Positions 567 to 12,136 of a DNA stretch of 12,421 bases are shown piece by piece (the stretch's first letter is position 1; each line of letters begins with the position of its first letter). Source of the stretch: a virus (lineage: Duplodnaviria > Heunggongvirae > Uroviricota > Caudoviricetes); IMG/VR virus record IMGVR_UViG_2728369183_000006; one strand, given 5' to 3'. The position numbers were made by a program, and so were the translations under genes. The notes beneath the pieces were generated by a model. It worked only from the letters and a program-made list of their open reading frames with translations. It had not been told where the DNA came from and searched no databases.

Positions 567-1314
567 TGCAGGATATCCGGCAGGAAACACTGAATGAATG
601 CACCCGTGCGGAGCAGTCGGCCAGCGTGGTGCTCTGGGAAATCGATCTGACAGAGGTCGGTGGAGAACGTTATTTTTTCTGTAATGAGCAGAACGAAAAA
701 GGTGAGCCGGTCACCTGGCAGGGGCGACAGTATCAGCCGTATCNNNNNNNNNNNNNNNNNNNNNNNNNNNNNNNNNNNNNNNNNNNNNNNNNNNNNNNNN
801 NNNNNNNNNNNNNNNNNNNNNNNNNNNNNNNNNNNNNNNNNNNNNNNNNNNNNNNNNNNNNNNNNNNNNNNNNNNNNNCACCGGGATGGCGGAAGATCTG
901 CAGAGTCTGGTCGGCGGAACGGTGGTCCGGCGTAAGGTCTACGCCCGTTTTCTGGATGCGGTGAACTTCGTCAACGGAAACCGTGACGCCGATCCGGAGC
1001 AGGAGGTGATCAGCCGCTGGCGCATCGAGCAGTGCAGCGAACTGAGCGCAGTCAGTGCCTCTTTTGTACTGTCCACGCCGACGGAAACGGATGGCGCTGT
1101 TTTTCCGGGACGTATCATGCTGGCCAACACCTGCACCTGGACCTATCGCGGCGATGAGTGCGGTTATAGCGGTCCGGCGGTCGCGGATGAATATGATCAG
1201 CCGACGTCCGATATCACGAAGGATAAATGCAGCAAATGCCTGAGCGGCTGTAAGTTTCGCAATAACGTCGGCAACTTTGGCGGCTTCCTTTCCATTAACA
1301 AACTTTCGCAGTAA
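566..1314 (+). CDS. L: Tail tip protein L (Fe-S cluster-binding), interrupted by an N-run at 744-878
   Basis: The N-terminal part (MQDIRQETLNECTRAEQSASVVLWEIDL...) and C-terminal part (...CKFRNNVGNFGGFLSINKLSQ) both match lambda gpL from memory. The two parts are in different frames across the N-run, consistent with an unsized gap. A C-terminal cysteine cluster is present. Confidence 0.88.
744..878. other. Run of 135 N (assembly gap or masked segment) inside gene L
   Basis: Directly visible as N characters. The flanking L reading frames do not join, so the gap length is probably arbitrary. Confidence 0.95.
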
Positions 1315-3078: not shown

Positions 3079-6000
3079 ATGGGTAAAGGAAGCAGTAAGG
3101 GGCATACCCCGCGCGAAGCGAGGGACAACCTGAAGTCCACGCAGCTGCTGAGTGTGATCGATGCCATCAGCGAAGGGCCGGTTGAAGGTCCGGTGGNNNN
3201 NNNNNNNNNNNNNNNNNNNNNNNNNNNNNNNNNNNNNNNNNNNNNNNNNNNNNNNNNNNNNNNNNNNNACCGGTGCTGGACAGTGAGGGGAATACTAACA
3301 TCTCTGGTGTCACGGTGGTGTTCCGGGCAGGTGAGCAGGAACAGACACCGCCGGAGGGATTTGAATCATCAGGTTCCGAGACGGTACTGGGTACGGAAGT
3401 GAAATACGACACGCCGATCACCCGGACCATCACGTCGGCAAACATTGACCGACTGCGTTTTACCTTCGGTGTGCAGGCACTGGTGGAAACCACCTCAAAG
3501 GGGGACAGGAATCCGTCGGAAGTTCGCCTGCTGGTTCAGATACAACGTAATGGTGGCTGGGTGACGGAAAAAGACATCACCATTAAGGGCAAAACCACCT
3601 CGCAGTATCTGGCCTCGGTGGTGGTGGGTAACCTGCCGCCGCGCCCGTTCAATATACGGATGCGCAGGATGACGCCGGACAGCACCACAGACCAGCTGCA
3701 GAACAAAACGCTCTGGTCGTCATACACCGAAATCATCGATGTGAAACAGGGCTACCCGAACACGGCACTGGTCGGCGTGCAGGTGGATTCGGAGCAGTTC
3801 GGCAGCCAGCAGGTGAGCCGTAATTATCATCTTCGCGGGCGCATTCTGCAGGTGCCGTCGAACTATAACCCGCAGACGCGNNNNNNNNNNACGGTATCTG
3901 GGACGGGACGTTTAAACCGGCATACAGCAACAACATGGCCTGGTGTCTGTGGGATATGCTGACCCACCCGCGCTACGGCATGGGGAAACGTCTTGGTGCG
4001 GCGGATGTGGACAAATGGGCGCTGTATGTCATCGGCCAGTATTGCGATCAGTCAGTGCCGGATGGCTTTGGTGGCACGGAGCCGCGCATCACCTGTAATG
4101 CCTACCTGACCACACAGCGTAAGGCGTGGGATGTTCTCAGTGATTTCTGCTCGGCGATGCGCTGTATGCCGGTATGGAACGGGCAGACGCTGACGTTCGT
4201 GCAGGACCGACCATCAGATAAGGTGTGGACCTATAACCGCAGTAATGTGGTGATGCCGGATGATGGCGCGCCGTTCCGCTACAGCTTCAGCGCCCTGAAG
4301 GACCGCCATAATGCCGTTGAGGTGAACTGGATTGACCCGAATAACGGCTGGGAGACGGCGACAGAGCTTGTTGAAGATACGCAGGCCATTCTCCGTTACG
4401 GTCGTAACGTCACGAAGATGGATGCCTTTGGCTGTACCAGCCGGGGGCAGGCACACCGCGCCGGGCTGTGGCTGATTAAAACGGAGCTGCTGGAAACGCA
4501 GACCGTGGACTTCAGCGTGGGTGCAGAAGGGCTTCGCCATGTACCGGGCGATGTCATTGAAATCTGTGATGATGACTATGCGGGTATCAGCATCGGCGGG
4601 CGCGTGCTGGCGGTGAACAGCCAGACGCGGACACTGACGCTCGACCGTGAAATCACGCTGCCATCCTCCGGCACCACGCTGATAAGCCTGGTTGACGGAC
4701 AGGGGAATCCGGTCAGCGTGGAGGTCCAGTCCGTCACCGACGGCGTGAAGGTGAAAGTGAGCCGTGTTCCTGACGGCGTTGCTGAATACAGCGTGTGGGG
4801 GCTGAAGCTGCCGACGCTGCGCCAGCGCCTGTTCCGCTGCGTGAGTATCCGTGAGAACGACGACGGCACGTATGCCATCACCGCCGTGCAGCATGTACCG
4901 GAAAAAGAAGCCATCGTGGATAACGGGGCGCACTTTGACGGCGACCAGAGCGGCACGGTGAATGGTGTCACGCCGCCAGCGGTGCAGCACCTGACTGCCG
5001 AAGTCACCGCAGACAGCGGGGAATATCAGGTGCTGGCCCGCTGGGACACGCCGAAGGTGGTGAAGGGCGTGAGCTTCCTGCTCCGTCTGACCGTAACAGC
5101 GGATGACGGCAGTGAGCGGCTGGTCAGCACGGCCCGGACGACGGAAACCACATACCGCTTCAGGCAGCTGGCGCTGGGGAACTACAGGCTGACAGTCAGG
5201 GCGGTAAATGCCTGGGGGCAGCAGGGTGATCCGGCGTCGGTATCATTCCGGATTGCCGCACCGGCAGCACCGTCGCGGATTGAGCTGACGCCGGGCTATT
5301 TTCAGATAACCGCCACGCCGCATCTTGCGGTTTATGATCCGACGGTACAGTTTGAGTTCTGGTTCTCGGAAAAACGGATTGCGGATATCAGGCAGGTTGA
5401 AACCAGCGCGCGTTATCTTGGTACGGCACTGTACTGGATAGCCGCCAGTATCAATATCAAACCGGGCCATGATTATTATTTTTACGTTCGCAGTGTGAAC
5501 ACCGTTGGCAAATCGGCATTCGTGGAGGCTGTCGGTCAGCCGAGTGATGATGCATCAGGCTATCTGGATTTTTTCAAAGGCGAGATAGGGAAAACCCATC
5601 TGGCTCAGGAGCTGTGGACGCAGATTGATAACGGTCAGCTTGCGCCTGACCTGACTGAAATCAGGACGTCCATAACGGATGTCAGCAATGAAATAACACA
5701 GACCGTCAATAAGAAACTGGAAGACCAGAGTGCAGCGATCCAGCAGATACAGAAGGTTCAGGTTGATACAAATAATAACCTGAACAGCATGTGGGCAGTG
5801 AAGCTGCAGCAGATGCAGGACGGACGCCTTTATATTGCGGGTATCGGTGCCGGTATTGAGAACACCCCTGACGGCATGCAGAGTCAGGTGCTGCTGGCAG
5901 CAGACAGGATTGCGATGATTAATCCTGCGAATGGCAACACAAAGCCGATGTTTGTTGGTCAGGGCGATCAGATATTCATGAATGAAGTGTTCCTGAAACG

Positions 6001-6601
6001 CCTGACGGCCCCCACCATTACCAGCGGCGGTAATCCTCCGGCATTTTCCCTGACACCGGACGGGCGGCTGACGGCGAAAAATGCCGATATCAGCGGTAAC
6101 GTGAATGCGAACTCCGGGACGCTCAACAACGTCACGATTAACGAGAACTGTCGGGTTCTGGGAAAATTGTCCGCGAACCAGATTGAAGGCGATCTCGTTA
6201 AAACAGTGGGCAAAGCTTTCCCCCGGGACTCCCGTGCACCGGAGCGGTGGCCATCAGGAACCATTACCGTCAGGGTTTATGACGATCAGCCGTTTGACCG
6301 GCAGATTGTTATTCCGGCGGTGGCATTCAGCGGCGCTAAACATGAGAAAGAGCATACTGATATTTACTCCTCATGCCGTCTGATAGTGCGGAAAAACGGT
6401 GCTGAAATTTATAACCGTACCGCGCTGGATAATACGCTGATTTACAGTGGCGTTATTGATATGCCTGCCGGTCACGGTCACATGACACTGGAGTTTTCGG
6501 TGTCAGCATGGCTGGTAAATAACTGGTATCCCACAGCAAGTATCAGCGATTTGCTGGTTGTGGTGATGAAGAAAGCCACTGCAGGCATCACGATTAGCTG
6601 A
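3079..6601 (+). CDS. J: Tail tip host-specificity protein J (central tail fibre), interrupted by N-runs at 3197-3268 and 3881-3890
   Basis: N-terminus [34 protein letters not shown] and long internal stretches match lambda gpJ from memory. The three ORF-track pieces (3079.., 3273.., 3935..6601) are one gene whose frame is broken only at the N-runs. The C-terminal region appears divergent from lambda. Stop is TGA at 6599-6601. Confidence 0.9.
3197..3268. other. Run of 72 N inside gene J
   Basis: Directly visible. From my recollection of lambda J, roughly 11 codons are missing here, so the N count is not a true gap size. Confidence 0.95.
3881..3890. other. Run of 10 N inside gene J
   Basis: Directly visible. 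The J frame shifts by one across it, so the true gap is probably 9 or 12 nt. Confidence 0.95.
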
Positions 6602-6620
6602 ATTTTATAACCCAGATACG

Positions 6621-6647
6621 GGCACCAGAAATGGTGCCTTTTTTATT
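6621..6647 (+). terminator. Rho-independent terminator downstream of J
   Basis: Stem ggcacc (6621-6626), loop agaaat, stem ggtgcc (6633-6638), followed by ttttttatt. Confidence 0.55.
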
Positions 6648-6668: not shown

Positions 6669-7268
6669 ATGCGTAAAGTTTGTGCAGCCATTTTGTCCGC
6701 AGCCATCTGTCTGGCCGTATCCGGTGCGCCTGCATGGGCGTCTGAGCAGCAGGCCACACTGAGCGCAGGGTATCTTCATGCCCGTACGAACGCTCCCGGC
6801 AGCGATAATCTGAACGGGATTAACGTGAAATACCGTTATGAGTTTACGGACACGCTGGGGCTGATTACGTCATTCAGTTATGCCAACGCTGAAGATGAGC
6901 AAAAAACGCATTACAGCGATACCCGCTGGCATGAAGATTCCGTGCGTAACCGCTGGTTCAGCGTGATGGCGGGGCCGTCTGTGCGCGTGAATGAATGGTT
7001 CAGCGCGTATGCGATGGCGGGTGTGGCTTACAGCCGTGTGTCGACTTTCTCCGGGGATTATCTGCAGGTGACCGACAATACGGGGAAAACGCACGATGTG
7101 CTGACCGGAAGTGATGACGGTCGCCACAGCAACACGTCTCTGGCGTGGGGGGCTGGCGTGCAGTTTAACCCGACAGAATCCGTGGCCGTTGATGTCGCTT
7201 ATGAAGGCTCCGGCAGCGGTGACTGGCGTACCAACAGTTTCATCGTTGGTGTCGGTTATAAATTCTGA
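6669..7268 (+). CDS. lom: Lom outer-membrane protein (Ail/Lom/OmpX family beta-barrel)
   Basis: 199-aa translation ([26 protein letters not shown]... ...FIVGVGYKF) matches lambda Lom from memory. It has an N-terminal signal peptide, a C-terminal aromatic residue, and GAGAGG-like RBS upstream. Confidence 0.9.
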
Positions 7269-7294: not shown

Positions 7295-7322
7295 AGCCCG
7301 CCGGTTCAGGCGGGCTTTTTTG
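7295..7322 (+). terminator. Rho-independent terminator after lom
   Basis: Stem agcccgcc (7295-7302), loop ggttca, stem ggcgggct (7309-7316), running into tttttt (7316-7321). Confidence 0.65.
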
Positions 7323-7332
7323 TGGGGTGAAT

Positions 7333-10300
7333 ATGGCAGTAAAGATTTCAGGTGTACTGAAAGACGGCACAGGAAAACCGGTACAGAACTGCACAATCCA
7401 GCTGAAAGCAAAACGTAACAGCACCACGGTGGTGGTGAACACGCTGGCCTCAGAAAATCCGGATGAAGCCGGGCGTTACAGCATGGACGTTGAGTACGGT
7501 CAGTACAGCGTTATTCTGTTGGTGGAAGGATTCCCGCCGTCACATGCCGGGACCATCACCGTGTATGAAGATTCCCGACCCGGTACGCTGAATGATTTTC
7601 TCGGTGCCATGACGGAGGATGATGCCCGTCCTGAGGCACTGCGCCGCTTTGAACTGATGGTGGAAGAGGTGGCGCGTAACGCGTCCGCGGTGGCACAGAA
7701 CACGGCAGCCGCGAAGAAATCAGCCAGCGATGCCAGCACATCAGCCCGTGAGGCGGCAACCCGTGCGACTGATGCTGCAGGCTCAGCACGAGCAGCCAGC
7801 ACGTCAGCCGGACAGGCCGCTTCGTCGGCTCAGTCTGCGTCTTCCAGCGCAGGAACGGCATCAGCAAAGGCCACTGAAGCATCAAAAAGTGCTGCCGCTG
7901 CAGAGTCCTCAAAAAGCGCGGCGGCCACCAGTGCCGGTGCGGCGAAAACGTCAGAAACGAATGCGGCAGCGTCACAACAATCAGCTGCCACTTCTGCATC
8001 CACCGCGACCACGAAAGCGTCAGAAGCAGCCACCTCAGCCAGAGATGCGTCGGCTTCAAAAGAGGCGGCAAAATTATCAGAAACGAGCGCAGCCTCGAGC
8101 GCCAGTAATGCCGCTTCCTCGGCAACGGCGGCAGGAAATTCCGCGAAGGCGGCAAAGACGTCTGAGACAAACGCTAAGTCCTCTGAAACGGCAGCAGCAC
8201 AGAGTGCCTCCGCAGCAGCAGGCTCAAAAACAGCGGCTGCGTCGTCTGCCAGTGCAGCGTCAACAAGTGCCGGGCAGGCCTCAGCCAGTGCTAGCGCCGC
8301 CGGAAAATCGGCAGAAAGCGCCGCATCGTCCGCTTCAACAGCCACAACGAAGGCTGGCGAAGCCACTGAACAGGCCAGTGCAGCAGCGAGGTCTGCTTCC
8401 GCAGCGAAGACATCGGAGACGAACGCGAAAGCGTCGGAGACCAGCGCAGAATCCTCAAAAACGGCTGCCGCATCGTCCGCCAGTTCGGCGGCGTCATCGG
8501 CATCATCGGCGTCTGCTTCAAAAGATGAGGCGACCAGACAGGCGTCAGCAGCGAAGGGCAGCGCCACGACAGCATCCGCGAAGGCGACAGAGGCAGCTGG
8601 CAGTGCGACGGCGGCAGCACAGAGCAAAAGTACGGCGGAATCCGCGGCAACGCGCGCCGAGACAGCGGCAAAACGGGCAGAGGATATTGCATCCGCCGTG
8701 GCGCTTGAGGATGCAAGTACGACGAAAAAGGGGATAGTACAGCTCAGCAGTGCGACCAACATCACATCTGAAACGCTTGCCGCGACACCGAAGGCAGTTA
8801 AAGCAGCGAATGACAATGCGAATGGCAGGGTACCATCTAACCGAAAAGTTAACGGGAAAGCACTGACTGCGGATATAACATTAACACCGAAAGATATTGG
8901 CACTTTAAATTCAGTAACGATCTCTTTCTCTGGCGGGGCTGGGTGGTTCAAACTGGCAACGGTTACCATGCCACAAGCGAGTTCCATCGTTTACATCGCA
9001 TTGATTGGTGGCGCTGGTTACAACGTCGGTTCCCCACATCAGGCAGGCATTTCAGAACTGGTTCTACGAGCAGGCAATGGAAACCCCAAAGGAATTACCG
9101 GGGCTTTGTGGAAGCGTACAGCCGTCGGATTAACGAATTTCGCCTGGATCAACACATCCGGCGATACATATGATATTTACGTTGAGATTGGCAATTATGC
9201 GACGAGTGTAAATATCCATTGGGATTGTACTGCAAATGCGTCAGTTTCTATTTATACCTCGCCAACATATTCAGCGAGTAAGCCTTCCAGCGTTACCGGT
9301 GGTGTTGTTTATACGATGTATAGCTCACATCAGAAACCTACACCATCAGATATTGGAGCGCTGCCAACGACTGGAGGGACTATTTCAGGTCCGTTGTCTG
9401 TTACTGATGGGATCACCGGGGCACTGAAGGGGAACGCCGATACCGCGACGAAACTTGCGGCAGCCCCAAAAATTAACGGTGTTAAGTTTGATGGCTCGGC
9501 GGATATTAACCTCACGCCGGAAAATATTGGTGCATTTGCCCGACGTTCGACGGGGGCTTATGCGGATTCGAATGGAGCCGTTCCCTGGAATGCCGAATCA
9601 GGCGCTTACAATGTCGCCCGCTCTGGCGACAGCTATATTCTGGTTAACTTCTATACCGGAGTCGGAAGTTGCCGGACCCTGCAGATGAAGGCGCATTACA
9701 GAAATCGTGGTCTGTTCTACCGTTCTTCAAGAGACGGTTATGGTTTTGAGGAAGACTGGGCAGAAGTTTATACCTCGAAAAATCTTCCACCAGAAAGCTA
9801 CCCAGTTGGCGCACCAATCCCGTGGCCATCAGATACCGTTCCGTCTGGTTATGCCCTGATGCAGGGGCAGACTTTTAACAAATCTGCCTACCCGAAACTT
9901 GCAGCGGCTTATCCGTCAGGCGTGATCCCTGATATGCGTGGCTGGACGATTAAGGGCAAACCCGCCAGTGGCCGGGCCGTATTGTCTCAGGAACAGGACG
10001 GCATAAAATCGCACACCCACAGCGCCAGCGCATCCAGTACGGATTTGGGGACGAAAACCACATCGTCGTTTGATTACGGCACTAAATCCACGAATAACAC
10101 CGGGGCGCATACGCACAGTCTGAGTGGCTCTACGGGGTCTGCCGGTGTTCATACTCATGGTAATGGTATTCGTTGGCCAGGAGGCGGCGGTTCTGCGTTA
10201 GCATTTTATGATGGCGGTGGGTTCACTTATGTCCAGAATTCACAGTATCAAGTAAGCCCGGAGACTTCTTCCTATAGATCGTATTATCAACGTATTCAGA

Positions 10301-10503
10301 CACAGTCAGCAGGTGCTCATACCCACTCGCTGTCTGGTACTGCAGCAAGTTCTGGCGCACATGCACATACTGTAGGTATTGGTGCGCATACGCACTCCGT
10401 TGCGATTGGTTCACATGGACACACCATCACCGTTAACGCTGCGGGTAACGCGGAAAACACCGTCAAAAACATCGCATTTAACTATATTGTGAGGCTTGCA
10501 TAA
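7333..10503 (+). CDS. stf: Side tail fibre protein Stf (long form, about 1056 aa)
   Basis: N-terminus [37 protein letters not shown] and C-terminus ...[31 protein letters not shown] match lambda Stf from memory. ATG 7333 is preferred over the GTG at 7327. It contains an Ala/Ser-rich repetitive shaft, [22 protein letters not shown]-type fibre repeats and His-rich HxH motifs. Confidence 0.88.
7680..8720 (+). repeat. GC-rich Ala/Ser/Thr low-complexity coding repeats within stf
   Basis: Reiterated AAKTSETNA-type units recur at about 7943, 8152 and 8404 with differing synonymous codons. The region produces long spurious ORFs in other frames on both strands. Confidence 0.6.
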
Positions 10504-11087
10504 TGGCATTCAGAATGAGTGAACAAGCACGGACCATAAAAATTTATAATCTGCTGGCCGGAACTAATGAATTTATTGGTGAAGGTGACGCATATATTCC
10601 GCCTCATACAGGTCTGCCAGCAAACAGTACCGATATTGCACCACCAGATATTCCTGCTGGCTTTGTGGCTGTTTTCAACAGTGATGAGGCATCGTGGCAT
10701 CTCGTTGAAGACCATCGGGGGAAAACGGTTTATGACGTAGCGTCAGGGGACGAGTTATTTATTTCTGAACTCGGTCCGTTACCGGAAAATGTTACCTGGT
10801 TATCGCCGGAAGGGGAGTTTCAGAAGTGGAACGGCACAGCCTGGGTGAAGGATACGGAAGCAGAAAAACTGTTCCGGATCCGGGAGGCGGAAGAAACAAA
10901 AAACAACCTGATGCAGGTAGCCAGTGAGCATATTGCGCCGCTTCAGGATGCTGCAGATCTGGAAATTGCAACGGAGGAAGAAACCTCATTGCTGGAAGCC
11001 TGGAAAAAGTATCGGGTGTTGCTGAACCGTGTTGATACATCAACTGCACCTGATATTGAGTGGCCTACGAACCCTGTCAGGGAGTAA
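10503..11087 (+). CDS. tfa: Tail fibre assembly protein Tfa
   Basis: 194-aa translation ([54 protein letters not shown]...) matches lambda Tfa from memory. Its ATG overlaps the stf stop (TAATG at 10501-10505). Confidence 0.9.
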
Positions 11088-11141: not shown

Positions 11142-11810
11142 CTATTTTTTCCCTGAAGCGGAAAACATTACTACAGTACCTTGAACCTTGGTTTTAACAT
11201 TCTCGAAATGCTCTGAGAGTATATGTGTTAAGCCTTCTTCGGAATCTTTTGTGTTTGAAAAGATGCCTTTCTGATTGTAAATGCGCATCAGTTTTTGACC
11301 GAAGCTATTGTGCACAACTCCATCGCCAAGAATTGTGGCTCCGTATAGAGTTCCATCGTCAGTTAAGGCCTGCGCCGCATTGCGTATTACACAGCTTTTT
11401 GTAGATATATTTCCAGGCAGGCAGTGAAGAAGGTAAAACATGGAAATGGAATCAAATTGACCATGTAACGCCGCGGGATAAGGTTCAAAAACATCATGGC
11501 TAATTTTATGTTTAATTTTTGATTCCCCAGCCCTTGTAGATGCCGCGTTCAGGCTAGCTTCGTTCAAATCCATTAAAGATATCAGACTACTCTCAGGTAC
11601 GTGAGTAAGGTAAAACCCAGTTCCAACACCAATATCCAGATGGTTGTTACCTACATGTTCCAGAAAGTGTGGAAGAAGGTGTTCCTTTGTAGGACATCCC
11701 CATGCAAGCCGATTTGATACTCCCAAAACCCACCAGTCATAAAGCTTTAGGGTAAGTGGTGTGTAAATTTTAGCCCCATCATCTGTGTTTTTTTTCATTG
11801 ATTTCACCAT
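11142..11810 (-). CDS. Class I SAM-dependent methyltransferase, unknown substrate (accessory cargo gene)
   Basis: Minus-strand ORF of 222 aa. An alternative start at 11798 (MKKNTDDG...) has a GGTGA-like RBS. Rossmann motif I is present (HLDIGVGTGFY), with an acidic residue after beta2 (SLMD) and a FDSISMFYLLHCLP-type motif. No DPPY/NPPY motif is visible, so a DNA N6/N4-methyltransferase seems unlikely. The segment is AT-rich. Confidence 0.7.
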   Translation of the reverse strand: MVKSMKKNTDDGAKIYTPLTLKLYDWWVLGVSNRLAWGCPTKEHLLPHFLEHVGNNHLDIGVGTGFYLTHVPESSLISLMDLNEASLNAASTRAGESKIKHKISHDVFEPYPAALHGQFDSISMFYLLHCLPGNISTKSCVIRNAAQALTDDGTLYGATILGDGVVHNSFGQKLMRIYNQKGIFSNTKDSEEGLTHILSEHFENVKTKVQGTVVMFSASGKK

Positions 11811-11866: not shown

Positions 11867-12136
11867 ATGCTGCCGCAGCATAGCGATATTGAAATAGCCT
11901 GGTATGCTTCGATACAGCAGGAGCCGAATGGCTGGAAGACCGTCACCACACAGTTCTACATCCAGGAATTCAGTGAGTATATTGCGCCACTGCAGGATGC
12001 TGTAGATCTGGAAATCGCAACGGAGGAAGAAAGATCGTTGCTGGAGGCATGGAATAAATATCGGGTATTGTTGAATCGTGTTGATACATCAACTGCACCT
12101 GATATTGAGTGGCCTGCAAACCCTGTCAGGGAGTAA
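11867..12136 (+). CDS. Tfa-like ORF (89 aa): novel 36-aa N-terminus fused to a conserved Tfa C-terminal domain; possibly a functional mini-Tfa or a remnant
   Basis: The C-terminal 54 aa ([54 protein letters not shown]) differ from the tfa C-terminus at only about 5 positions. An AAGGGG RBS lies 4 nt upstream of the ATG. Confidence 0.5.

Follow-up and report, generated by a model that had tools for sequence, protein, structure and literature searches.

A lambda-family tail tip protein J with two exchanged distal modules and a tip that most likely binds OmpC

The tail-tip end of a lambda-like E. coli prophage

The DNA analyzed here, a stretch of 12.4 kb that we call the window, is the tail-tip end of a lambda-like E. 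coli prophage, as judged by its open reading frames (ORFs) and their Pfam matches. It contains, in order, the end of H, then M, L, K, I, a small inserted ORF, J, lom, stf and tfa, followed by a methyltransferase gene on the opposite strand and a tfa remnant (Table 1). Several complete E. coli chromosomes match the window at 99.6% identity over 98% of its length. At the L002 locus, on one of these chromosomes, the counterpart of the window forms the right end of a complete head-tail prophage that adjoins a truncated ompW and the trp operon; this position next to a fragment of the OmpW gene agrees with the name "PPompW" used for prophages of O157 and O145 strains. ORF order, Pfam matches and the L002 annotation together place J within the tail block M-L-K-I-J-lom-stf-tfa. 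The stf and tfa genes, which show partial DNA matches to lambda stf/tfa (78-92% by blastn), form a second adsorption device of the same virion.

Two runs of N (3197-3268 and 3881-3890, together 82 bases) preserve neither length nor frame and split the J reading frame of the window into three ORF pieces; with a third N run at 744-878, the L reading frame is broken as well as that of J. Because the L002 counterpart, in a locus 99.6% identical to the window, is an intact gene of 1159 aa, we infer that J of this prophage is intact too. Stops are absent from the 902 readable C-terminal codons, and the NCBIfam model lambda_TipJ matches the last 400 aa (E = 2e-200). Two other signals were set aside: the N run at 744-878 produces a spurious dip in GC at 501-1250 of the composition profile, and ORFs in other frames within 5560-6601 (5968-6264 on the minus strand, 6105-6383 on the plus strand) lie inside a conserved, well-supported coding frame.

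Table 1. Features of J and the genes downstream of it, in window coordinates
Feature	Position	Strand	Basis
Gene J, tail tip attachment protein / central tail fibre (~1159 aa)	3079-6601	+	ORF pieces, translations
Lambda-like part of J, hub domains and two FNIII domains (residues 1-820)	3079-5581	+	Identity to lambda; ends in DFFKG
Fibre-shaft module, alpha-helical shaft followed by beta-prism straight fibre	5582-6097	+	Lambda alignment, blastn, Pfam
Receptor-binding module (residues 993-1159)	6098-6598	+	Pfam, match to graft of gpJ chimera 1A2, VT1-Sakai identity
Terminator-like hairpin and T run between J and lom	6620-6639	+	Consensus scan, sequence reading; pattern match only
lom, Ail/Lom outer-membrane beta-barrel, downstream of J	6669-7268	+	Pfam Ail_Lom, E = 3e-125
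Side tail fibre stf (1058 aa)	7327-10503	+	Pfam phage_tail_N, Collar and Caudo_TAP, for stf and tfa together
Tail fibre assembly gene tfa	10503-11087	+	Pfam, as for stf

The gap between I and J holds a 477-nt insert of low GC that encodes a 112-aa lipoprotein with the lipobox LTGC. Neither Pfam nor NCBIfam has a family for this protein, which belongs to PHROG 914 (function unknown) and gave no tblastn match among 50,697 deposited phage genomes. We found it in 337 complete E. coli genomes, and Klebsiella, Enterobacter, Kluyvera and Jejubacter have homologues that are 49-62% identical; its place in Klebsiella prophages is between K and I, with a very different J of 3100-3400 aa lying downstream. 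A part for the lipoprotein in superinfection exclusion can be no more than guessed at.

J departs from lambda gpJ at residue 820

A preliminary description of this DNA, made from the sequence, had claimed that the C-terminal receptor-recognition region of J diverges from lambda while the rest is near-identical. Aligning window J with lambda gpJ (1132 aa, from NC_001416) bore this out. Residues 258-818 are identical at 547 of 561 positions (98%), and the two N-terminal pieces that can be read match lambda just as closely, showing that the hub and FNIII region is homologous to that of lambda. From residue 819 to 1159, by contrast, only 167 of 341 positions are identical (49%, with gaps counted as mismatches), and within the Pfam Ig_GpJ_C domain the figure is 53 of 131 (40%). 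The C-terminus is thus far less conserved than the sequence upstream (Fisher's exact test, p = 5e-71). Both peptide strings quoted in that description are present in the J translation; the C-terminal end of lambda gpJ reads ...VMVIKKQALGISVV, and window J ends differently.

The position of the break could be placed closely. In sliding windows of 30 residues, identity to lambda is 93-100% up to lambda residue 797, then 77% (798-827), 14% with an insertion (828-857), 53-63% (858-917), 90% (918-977), 53-57% (978-1037) and finally 23-40% (1038-1132). The last shared motif, DFFKG, occupies residues 816-820 (nt 5567-5581), at the end of the second FNIII/Ig domain, where the Pfam match to Ig_J_second stops at nt 5575, and the first divergent residue begins at nt 5582. 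The start originally assigned to the divergent region, 5560, was therefore accurate, whereas the residue given for the break, about 830, moves to about 820.

Upstream, J is only 92-97% identical to lambda in DNA, and codon changes across residues 258-818 comprise 64 synonymous versus 14 non-synonymous differences, indicating a diverged relative under purifying selection rather than a recent copy of lambda. Identity then falls sharply in the interval 5543-5640 (64%), and the blastn match ends at 5618, so that the break lies at nt ~5582-5618. Further along, blastn against lambda found nothing at 5619-5787, a stretch of 76% identity at 5788-6151 and again nothing beyond 6151.

Modular structure of the distal fibre

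Past the break, divergence is uneven. The alpha-helical part of the shaft is longer than in lambda by 28 residues, which lie within residues ~836-866 (nt ~5627-5719), and the prism is 67% identical to that of lambda, with the 60-residue island at lambda 918-977 lying within the beta-prism straight fibre. Pfam Phage_Tail_Tip (PF09327) matches nt 5735-6121 (E = 5.6e-32), and Ig_GpJ_C (PF12421) matches over its whole profile at nt 6206-6598 (E = 1.1e-37), marking the Ig-like receptor-binding domain proper. Both matches are full-length and above the gathering scores, identifying the C-terminal fibre domains, and, as Ig_J_second is matched too, the fold family is kept. Of the region flagged in the preliminary description, receptor recognition falls to nt 6098-6598 alone, ~167 residues; 5582-6097 encodes fibre shaft.

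Structural work on lambda has resolved an alpha-helical shaft, a beta-sheet prism (the central straight fibre) and a receptor-binding domain with four distal loops (PMC11101478). Window J and LamB-binding lambda gpJ (PDB 8IYK, 8XCJ, 8XCK) have 98% identity over residues 1-820, the three C-terminal Pfam domains and the same domain order (hub, two FNIII domains, alpha-helical shaft, beta-prism, Ig-like receptor-binding domain); they differ in the length of the shaft, in the receptor-binding domain and, for lambda, in the use of LamB as receptor. With 46% identity over the last 167 residues and 40% over the Ig domain, the window module is not, by sequence identity, the LamB-binding allele of lambda (lambda ~985-1132). 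Core motifs are conserved in the window Ig domain (WPSGT.TV, DD..FDRQI, DMPAG.G and KK...GI), and the differences fall in segments that carry indels among natural alleles, at about lambda residues 1012, 1048, 1077 and 1107, sites to which Maddamsetti et al. tied the evolution of host range (PMC6646904). Among the 1207 natural homologues of that study, most variation is found in J residues 960-1132, a module that recombines independently of the rest (PMC6646904, Evolution 2018). Window J fits this pattern; that work left the receptors of natural alleles unassigned and excluded, by default, insertions like the 28-residue one in the shaft (PMC6646904).

We compared the modules of window J with those of nine other phage and prophage J proteins. 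VT1-Sakai (Sp15) has both window modules, with a shaft 94-98% identical and an Ig domain identical at 131 of 131 positions, and shares the gene order I-J-lom-stf, although the annotation has its J cut short by a mutation. In JLK-2012 and Stx2a_JNE122137 the window receptor-binding domain (97%) sits on another shaft (60-66%), and in Lambda_2G7a and ev099 the window shaft (96-99%) bears other receptor-binding domains (62% and 41%, respectively). Such shuffled pairings indicate that shaft and receptor-binding modules assort independently. The long shaft is present in six of the ten natural J sequences compared (lambda and the nine others); within so small a set, the short form, that of lambda, is the less common one. 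The PPompW prophages of E. coli O157 and O145 are also close relatives, with 96.8% DNA identity over 5560-6601 and, in the PPompW records, 99.2% identity to window J over the last 249 aa. The distal region is thus made up of two recombination modules, joined to their neighbours near residue 820 and at ~990-1030.

The terminal module matches an OmpC-targeting gpJ graft

Brödel et al. (Nature 2024) redirected lambda gpJ from LamB to OmpC by joining to it the C-terminal portions of gpJ variants from natural E. coli phages (PMC11338833); A8 and 1A2 are among these fusions (PMC11338833). We found that the 1A2 graft, which begins after ...AKNADISG, encodes the terminal module of window J (PMC11338833 supplement). 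Scored as frame-independent exact 4-mer coverage against three-frame translations of the machine-read supplement, which has dropped bases, at least 191 of the last 200 residues of window J are matched exactly in the 1A2 text, compared with 64 of 200 for the lambda control, all of them in the shared shaft. Up to 9 of the 200 positions are unread where the supplement text loses bases, and at one of them, in VAFSG, the two proteins may really differ (F versus L). Window residues 993-1159 are thus the 1A2 graft at the resolution of this comparison. The two proteins have in common this C-terminal stretch of ~167 residues, whose OmpC-dependent, LamB-independent specificity has been characterized experimentally in 1A2. 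They differ upstream: 1A2 is engineered, with lambda J up to residue ~964 (short shaft and prism) and a recoded graft, whereas window J has a natural, longer shaft and native codons.

In a delta-lamB delta-ompC host supplied with plasmid-borne OmpC variants, 1A2 gave more than 75% delivery for 20 of 23 variants (PMC11338833) and 2% or less for the other three, among them the OmpC of MG1655 (2%) (PMC11338833). On wild-type MG1655, in which LamB is present, 1A2 reached 5.2% at an MOI of 50 and wild-type lambda 97.7% at an MOI of 174 (PMC11338833). 1A2 has likewise served as the gpJ for targeting O157 strains, by way of the OmpC that they carry (EB003 preprint, doi 10.1101/2025.02.28.640725). Because the 1A2 graft is the terminal module of window J, these published data are direct evidence that the module specifies OmpC, in an allele-dependent manner, and not LamB. 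The preliminary description had left a choice between another receptor and another epitope on LamB; the former is supported, with OmpC as that receptor, and the latter is not, given that 1A2 works in a delta-lamB host. By analogy with this chimera, whose shaft is that of lambda, the native protein with its own shaft would behave in the same way, and OmpC is most likely the receptor of the prophage.

A search of PDB sequences returned A8 gpJ 713 as the best match (9wca/9wcb, E = 1.7e-155), with lambda gpJ at E = 1e-134. Of the solved structures, A8 is thus the nearest in sequence, and the homology of window J to solved structures is beyond doubt from sequence. Entry 9wcb also contains three OmpC chains and is thus a gpJ-OmpC entry; A8 uses OmpC and has a receptor-binding domain from the family to which that of window J belongs. 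A8 and window J have a C-terminal tail in common; their Ig domains, however, are identical at only 76 of 131 positions (58%), with indels at two loops, and A8 accepts K-12 OmpC, which 1A2 does not. The window allele is a sister of the A8 allele and not the same one. In the alignment, A8 shows no difference from Salmonella phage SPF_0923 across its last ~205 residues.

Three other comparators were considered and rejected. The J distal domain of Gifsy-1, a candidate OmpC-binding comparator, gave no meaningful alignment to the window Ig domain. Phage 21, considered as a model for the tip, natively uses LamB and has a J that is ~94% identical to lambda in DNA. For the phiR phages from the ECOR collection (PhiR55_1 has 97% DNA identity over the region), the source paper reports dependence on ManYZ and no outer-membrane receptor data. 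In the literature we found neither a receptor test on a natural phage carrying a window-type J with its own shaft nor receptor data for VT1-Sakai or the PPompW prophages.

A model for J-mediated adsorption, and the alternatives

J of this prophage is a mosaic of the lambda family, in which 820 lambda-type residues are followed by two separately acquired distal modules, and we propose that it ends in a tip that most likely binds OmpC; to this reading as a whole we assign a probability of roughly 0.85. Residues 1-820, the hub and FNIII domains that build the tail tip, are of lambda type, and the longer shaft and the Ig-like module of "1A2 / VT1-Sakai" type were each taken up from the gene pool of lambdoid prophages. 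On the basis of homology to lambda gpJ and to the A8 gpJ-OmpC complex, the J trimer is predicted to end in three Ig-like domains whose distal loops dock on the extracellular face of a trimeric outer-membrane porin, most likely OmpC rather than LamB. Recognition would be specific to the OmpC allele, taking in most natural E. coli variants and leaving out the OmpC of K-12. Binding would then be relayed up the shaft, opening the tail tip for DNA ejection; in lambda, LamB binding spreads the bases of the domains, and the change passes the beta-prism, flips the helical shaft and opens the tail tip (PMC11101478).

One alternative is that the 1A2 data tell only part of the story, because the native J, with its long shaft and its own side fibres, uses OmpC together with one or more further receptors, or because the shaft alters which OmpC alleles trigger ejection. 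The J of Gifsy-1 is reported to bind OmpC, OmpX and BtuB, and a lambda-like J with several receptors means that OmpC need not be the sole receptor here either; the distal domain of Gifsy-1 is, however, unrelated in sequence. An effect of the shaft would be in keeping with the role of that part in lambda, where it transmits the binding signal (PMC11101478), and the window shaft is unlike the lambda shaft of 1A2 in both its 28 extra residues and its prism. Against this, the same receptor-binding domain is found on at least two natural shafts, which argues for interchangeable modules, and we regard this alternative as improbable.

We consider it very improbable that the divergence reflects decay in a defective prophage whose J is no longer functional. 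The window J cannot be read through its N runs, and J genes of related prophages are sometimes broken (VT1-Sakai, JLK-2012), but L002, at 99.6% identity, has an intact 1159-aa J within a complete head-tail gene set, no stop interrupts the 902 readable C-terminal codons, the upstream changes are mostly synonymous, and the receptor-binding domain varies little from phage to phage (97-100% conserved) and works when grafted. That the diverged domain still binds LamB, through another epitope or LamB allele, is scarcely credible: it belongs to the same Pfam receptor-binding family as that of lambda, and phage 21, a lambda relative, natively uses LamB, but the domain is only 40% identical to lambda's, the 1A2 graft delivers to just 5.2% of LamB-positive MG1655 against 97.7% for wild-type lambda, and 1A2 works in delta-lamB given a suitable OmpC.

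Frequency of the receptor-binding allele and its implications

DNA like the window receptor-binding domain is present in 3378 of 5426 complete E. coli genomes (62%), with 994 records at 99% identity or more and 1148 at 95-99%; RefSeq annotates the allele as gpJ. Lambda's own domain occurs in 98 of the 5426 genomes (2%), in every case at 99% identity or more, with K-12 and B/BL21(DE3)-type strains of the laboratory heading the list of records. Lambda is therefore the unusual one, and not this prophage. The window allele is already known and very common, having been cloned, tested and used in engineered delivery particles, and modular exchange of the J specificity region was documented in 2018 (PMC6646904).

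Given the frequency of this receptor-binding family and the discrimination among OmpC alleles seen with 1A2, it is possible, though we think it unlikely, that the family is a major selective force on OmpC that drives the polymorphism of its surface loops in natural E. coli, and that the independently exchanged long shaft, whose 28 extra residues would span ~4 nm if fully helical, tunes reach or triggering on encapsulated or smooth hosts. For this prophage family, dependence on OmpC and not on LamB is to be expected, and laboratory hosts of K-12 type would probably serve poorly as indicators, since the 1A2-type domain does not recognize their OmpC. Among natural E. coli prophages, the LamB-binding tip of lambda is the rare form.

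Sequence gaps and ORF fragmentation

Genes L and J are broken in the window by three N runs. Compared with lambda or with the E. coli chromosomal locus that is 99.6% identical, these runs keep neither length nor frame, and the ORFs listed for the window are consequently fragmented. These runs also make the GC profile around them artificially low.

Coordinates and properties of features in the window
Feature	Position	Strand	Details
N run	744-878		135 bases
N run	3197-3268		72 bases
N run	3881-3890		10 bases
Terminator-like GC-rich hairpin, then T run	6620-6639	+	just 3' of J
Terminator-like GC-rich hairpin, then T run	7295-7316	+	just 3' of lom
Long repetitive Ala/Ser/Thr-rich stretch	7700-8750		within stf (7327-10503), 1058-aa Stf
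Class I SAM-dependent methyltransferase	11142-11810	-	Pfam Methyltransf_12/23/25; PHROG 2132
89-aa ORF, tfa remnant	11867-12136	+	Tfa repeat, lambda tfa DNA match

Organization of the genes downstream of J

Terminator-like hairpins lie on both sides of lom, making it possible that this gene forms a separate transcription unit. The number of such hairpins in the window (2) is not above the shuffled expectation (mean 1.0). The side tail fibre protein Stf is far longer than the fibre ORFs of lambda (orf-401 plus orf-314). Its repetitive stretch has a GC content of 60–62% and a strong AT skew, reaching 0.43, and gives rise to spurious long ORFs at 7730-8737 (+, in another frame) and 7830-8987 (-).

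Downstream of stf, the methyltransferase gene is flanked by tfa and a tfa remnant, runs opposite to the tail genes, and sits in a segment of 42–44% GC; it has the look of a moron. In the 89-aa remnant ORF, the second half is a repeat of the last ~60 residues of Tfa (10503-11087). At the DNA level, the ORF shows 85% identity to the 3' end of lambda tfa. Its equivalent is labelled in RefSeq as an incomplete tail fibre assembly pseudogene, and the ORF is possibly what is left of an alternative or invertible fibre-tip cassette.

An A8-type J tip in a Salmonella phage

Comparing positions 3201-3950 of the Salmonella phage SPF_0923 sequence with the sequence of A8 gpJ (PDB 9wca), an engineered lambda gpJ chimera that uses OmpC, we found that the two J proteins are identical at every residue over the aligned last ~205 residues, indicating that the A8-type OmpC-binding tip circulates in both Salmonella and E. 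coli phages.
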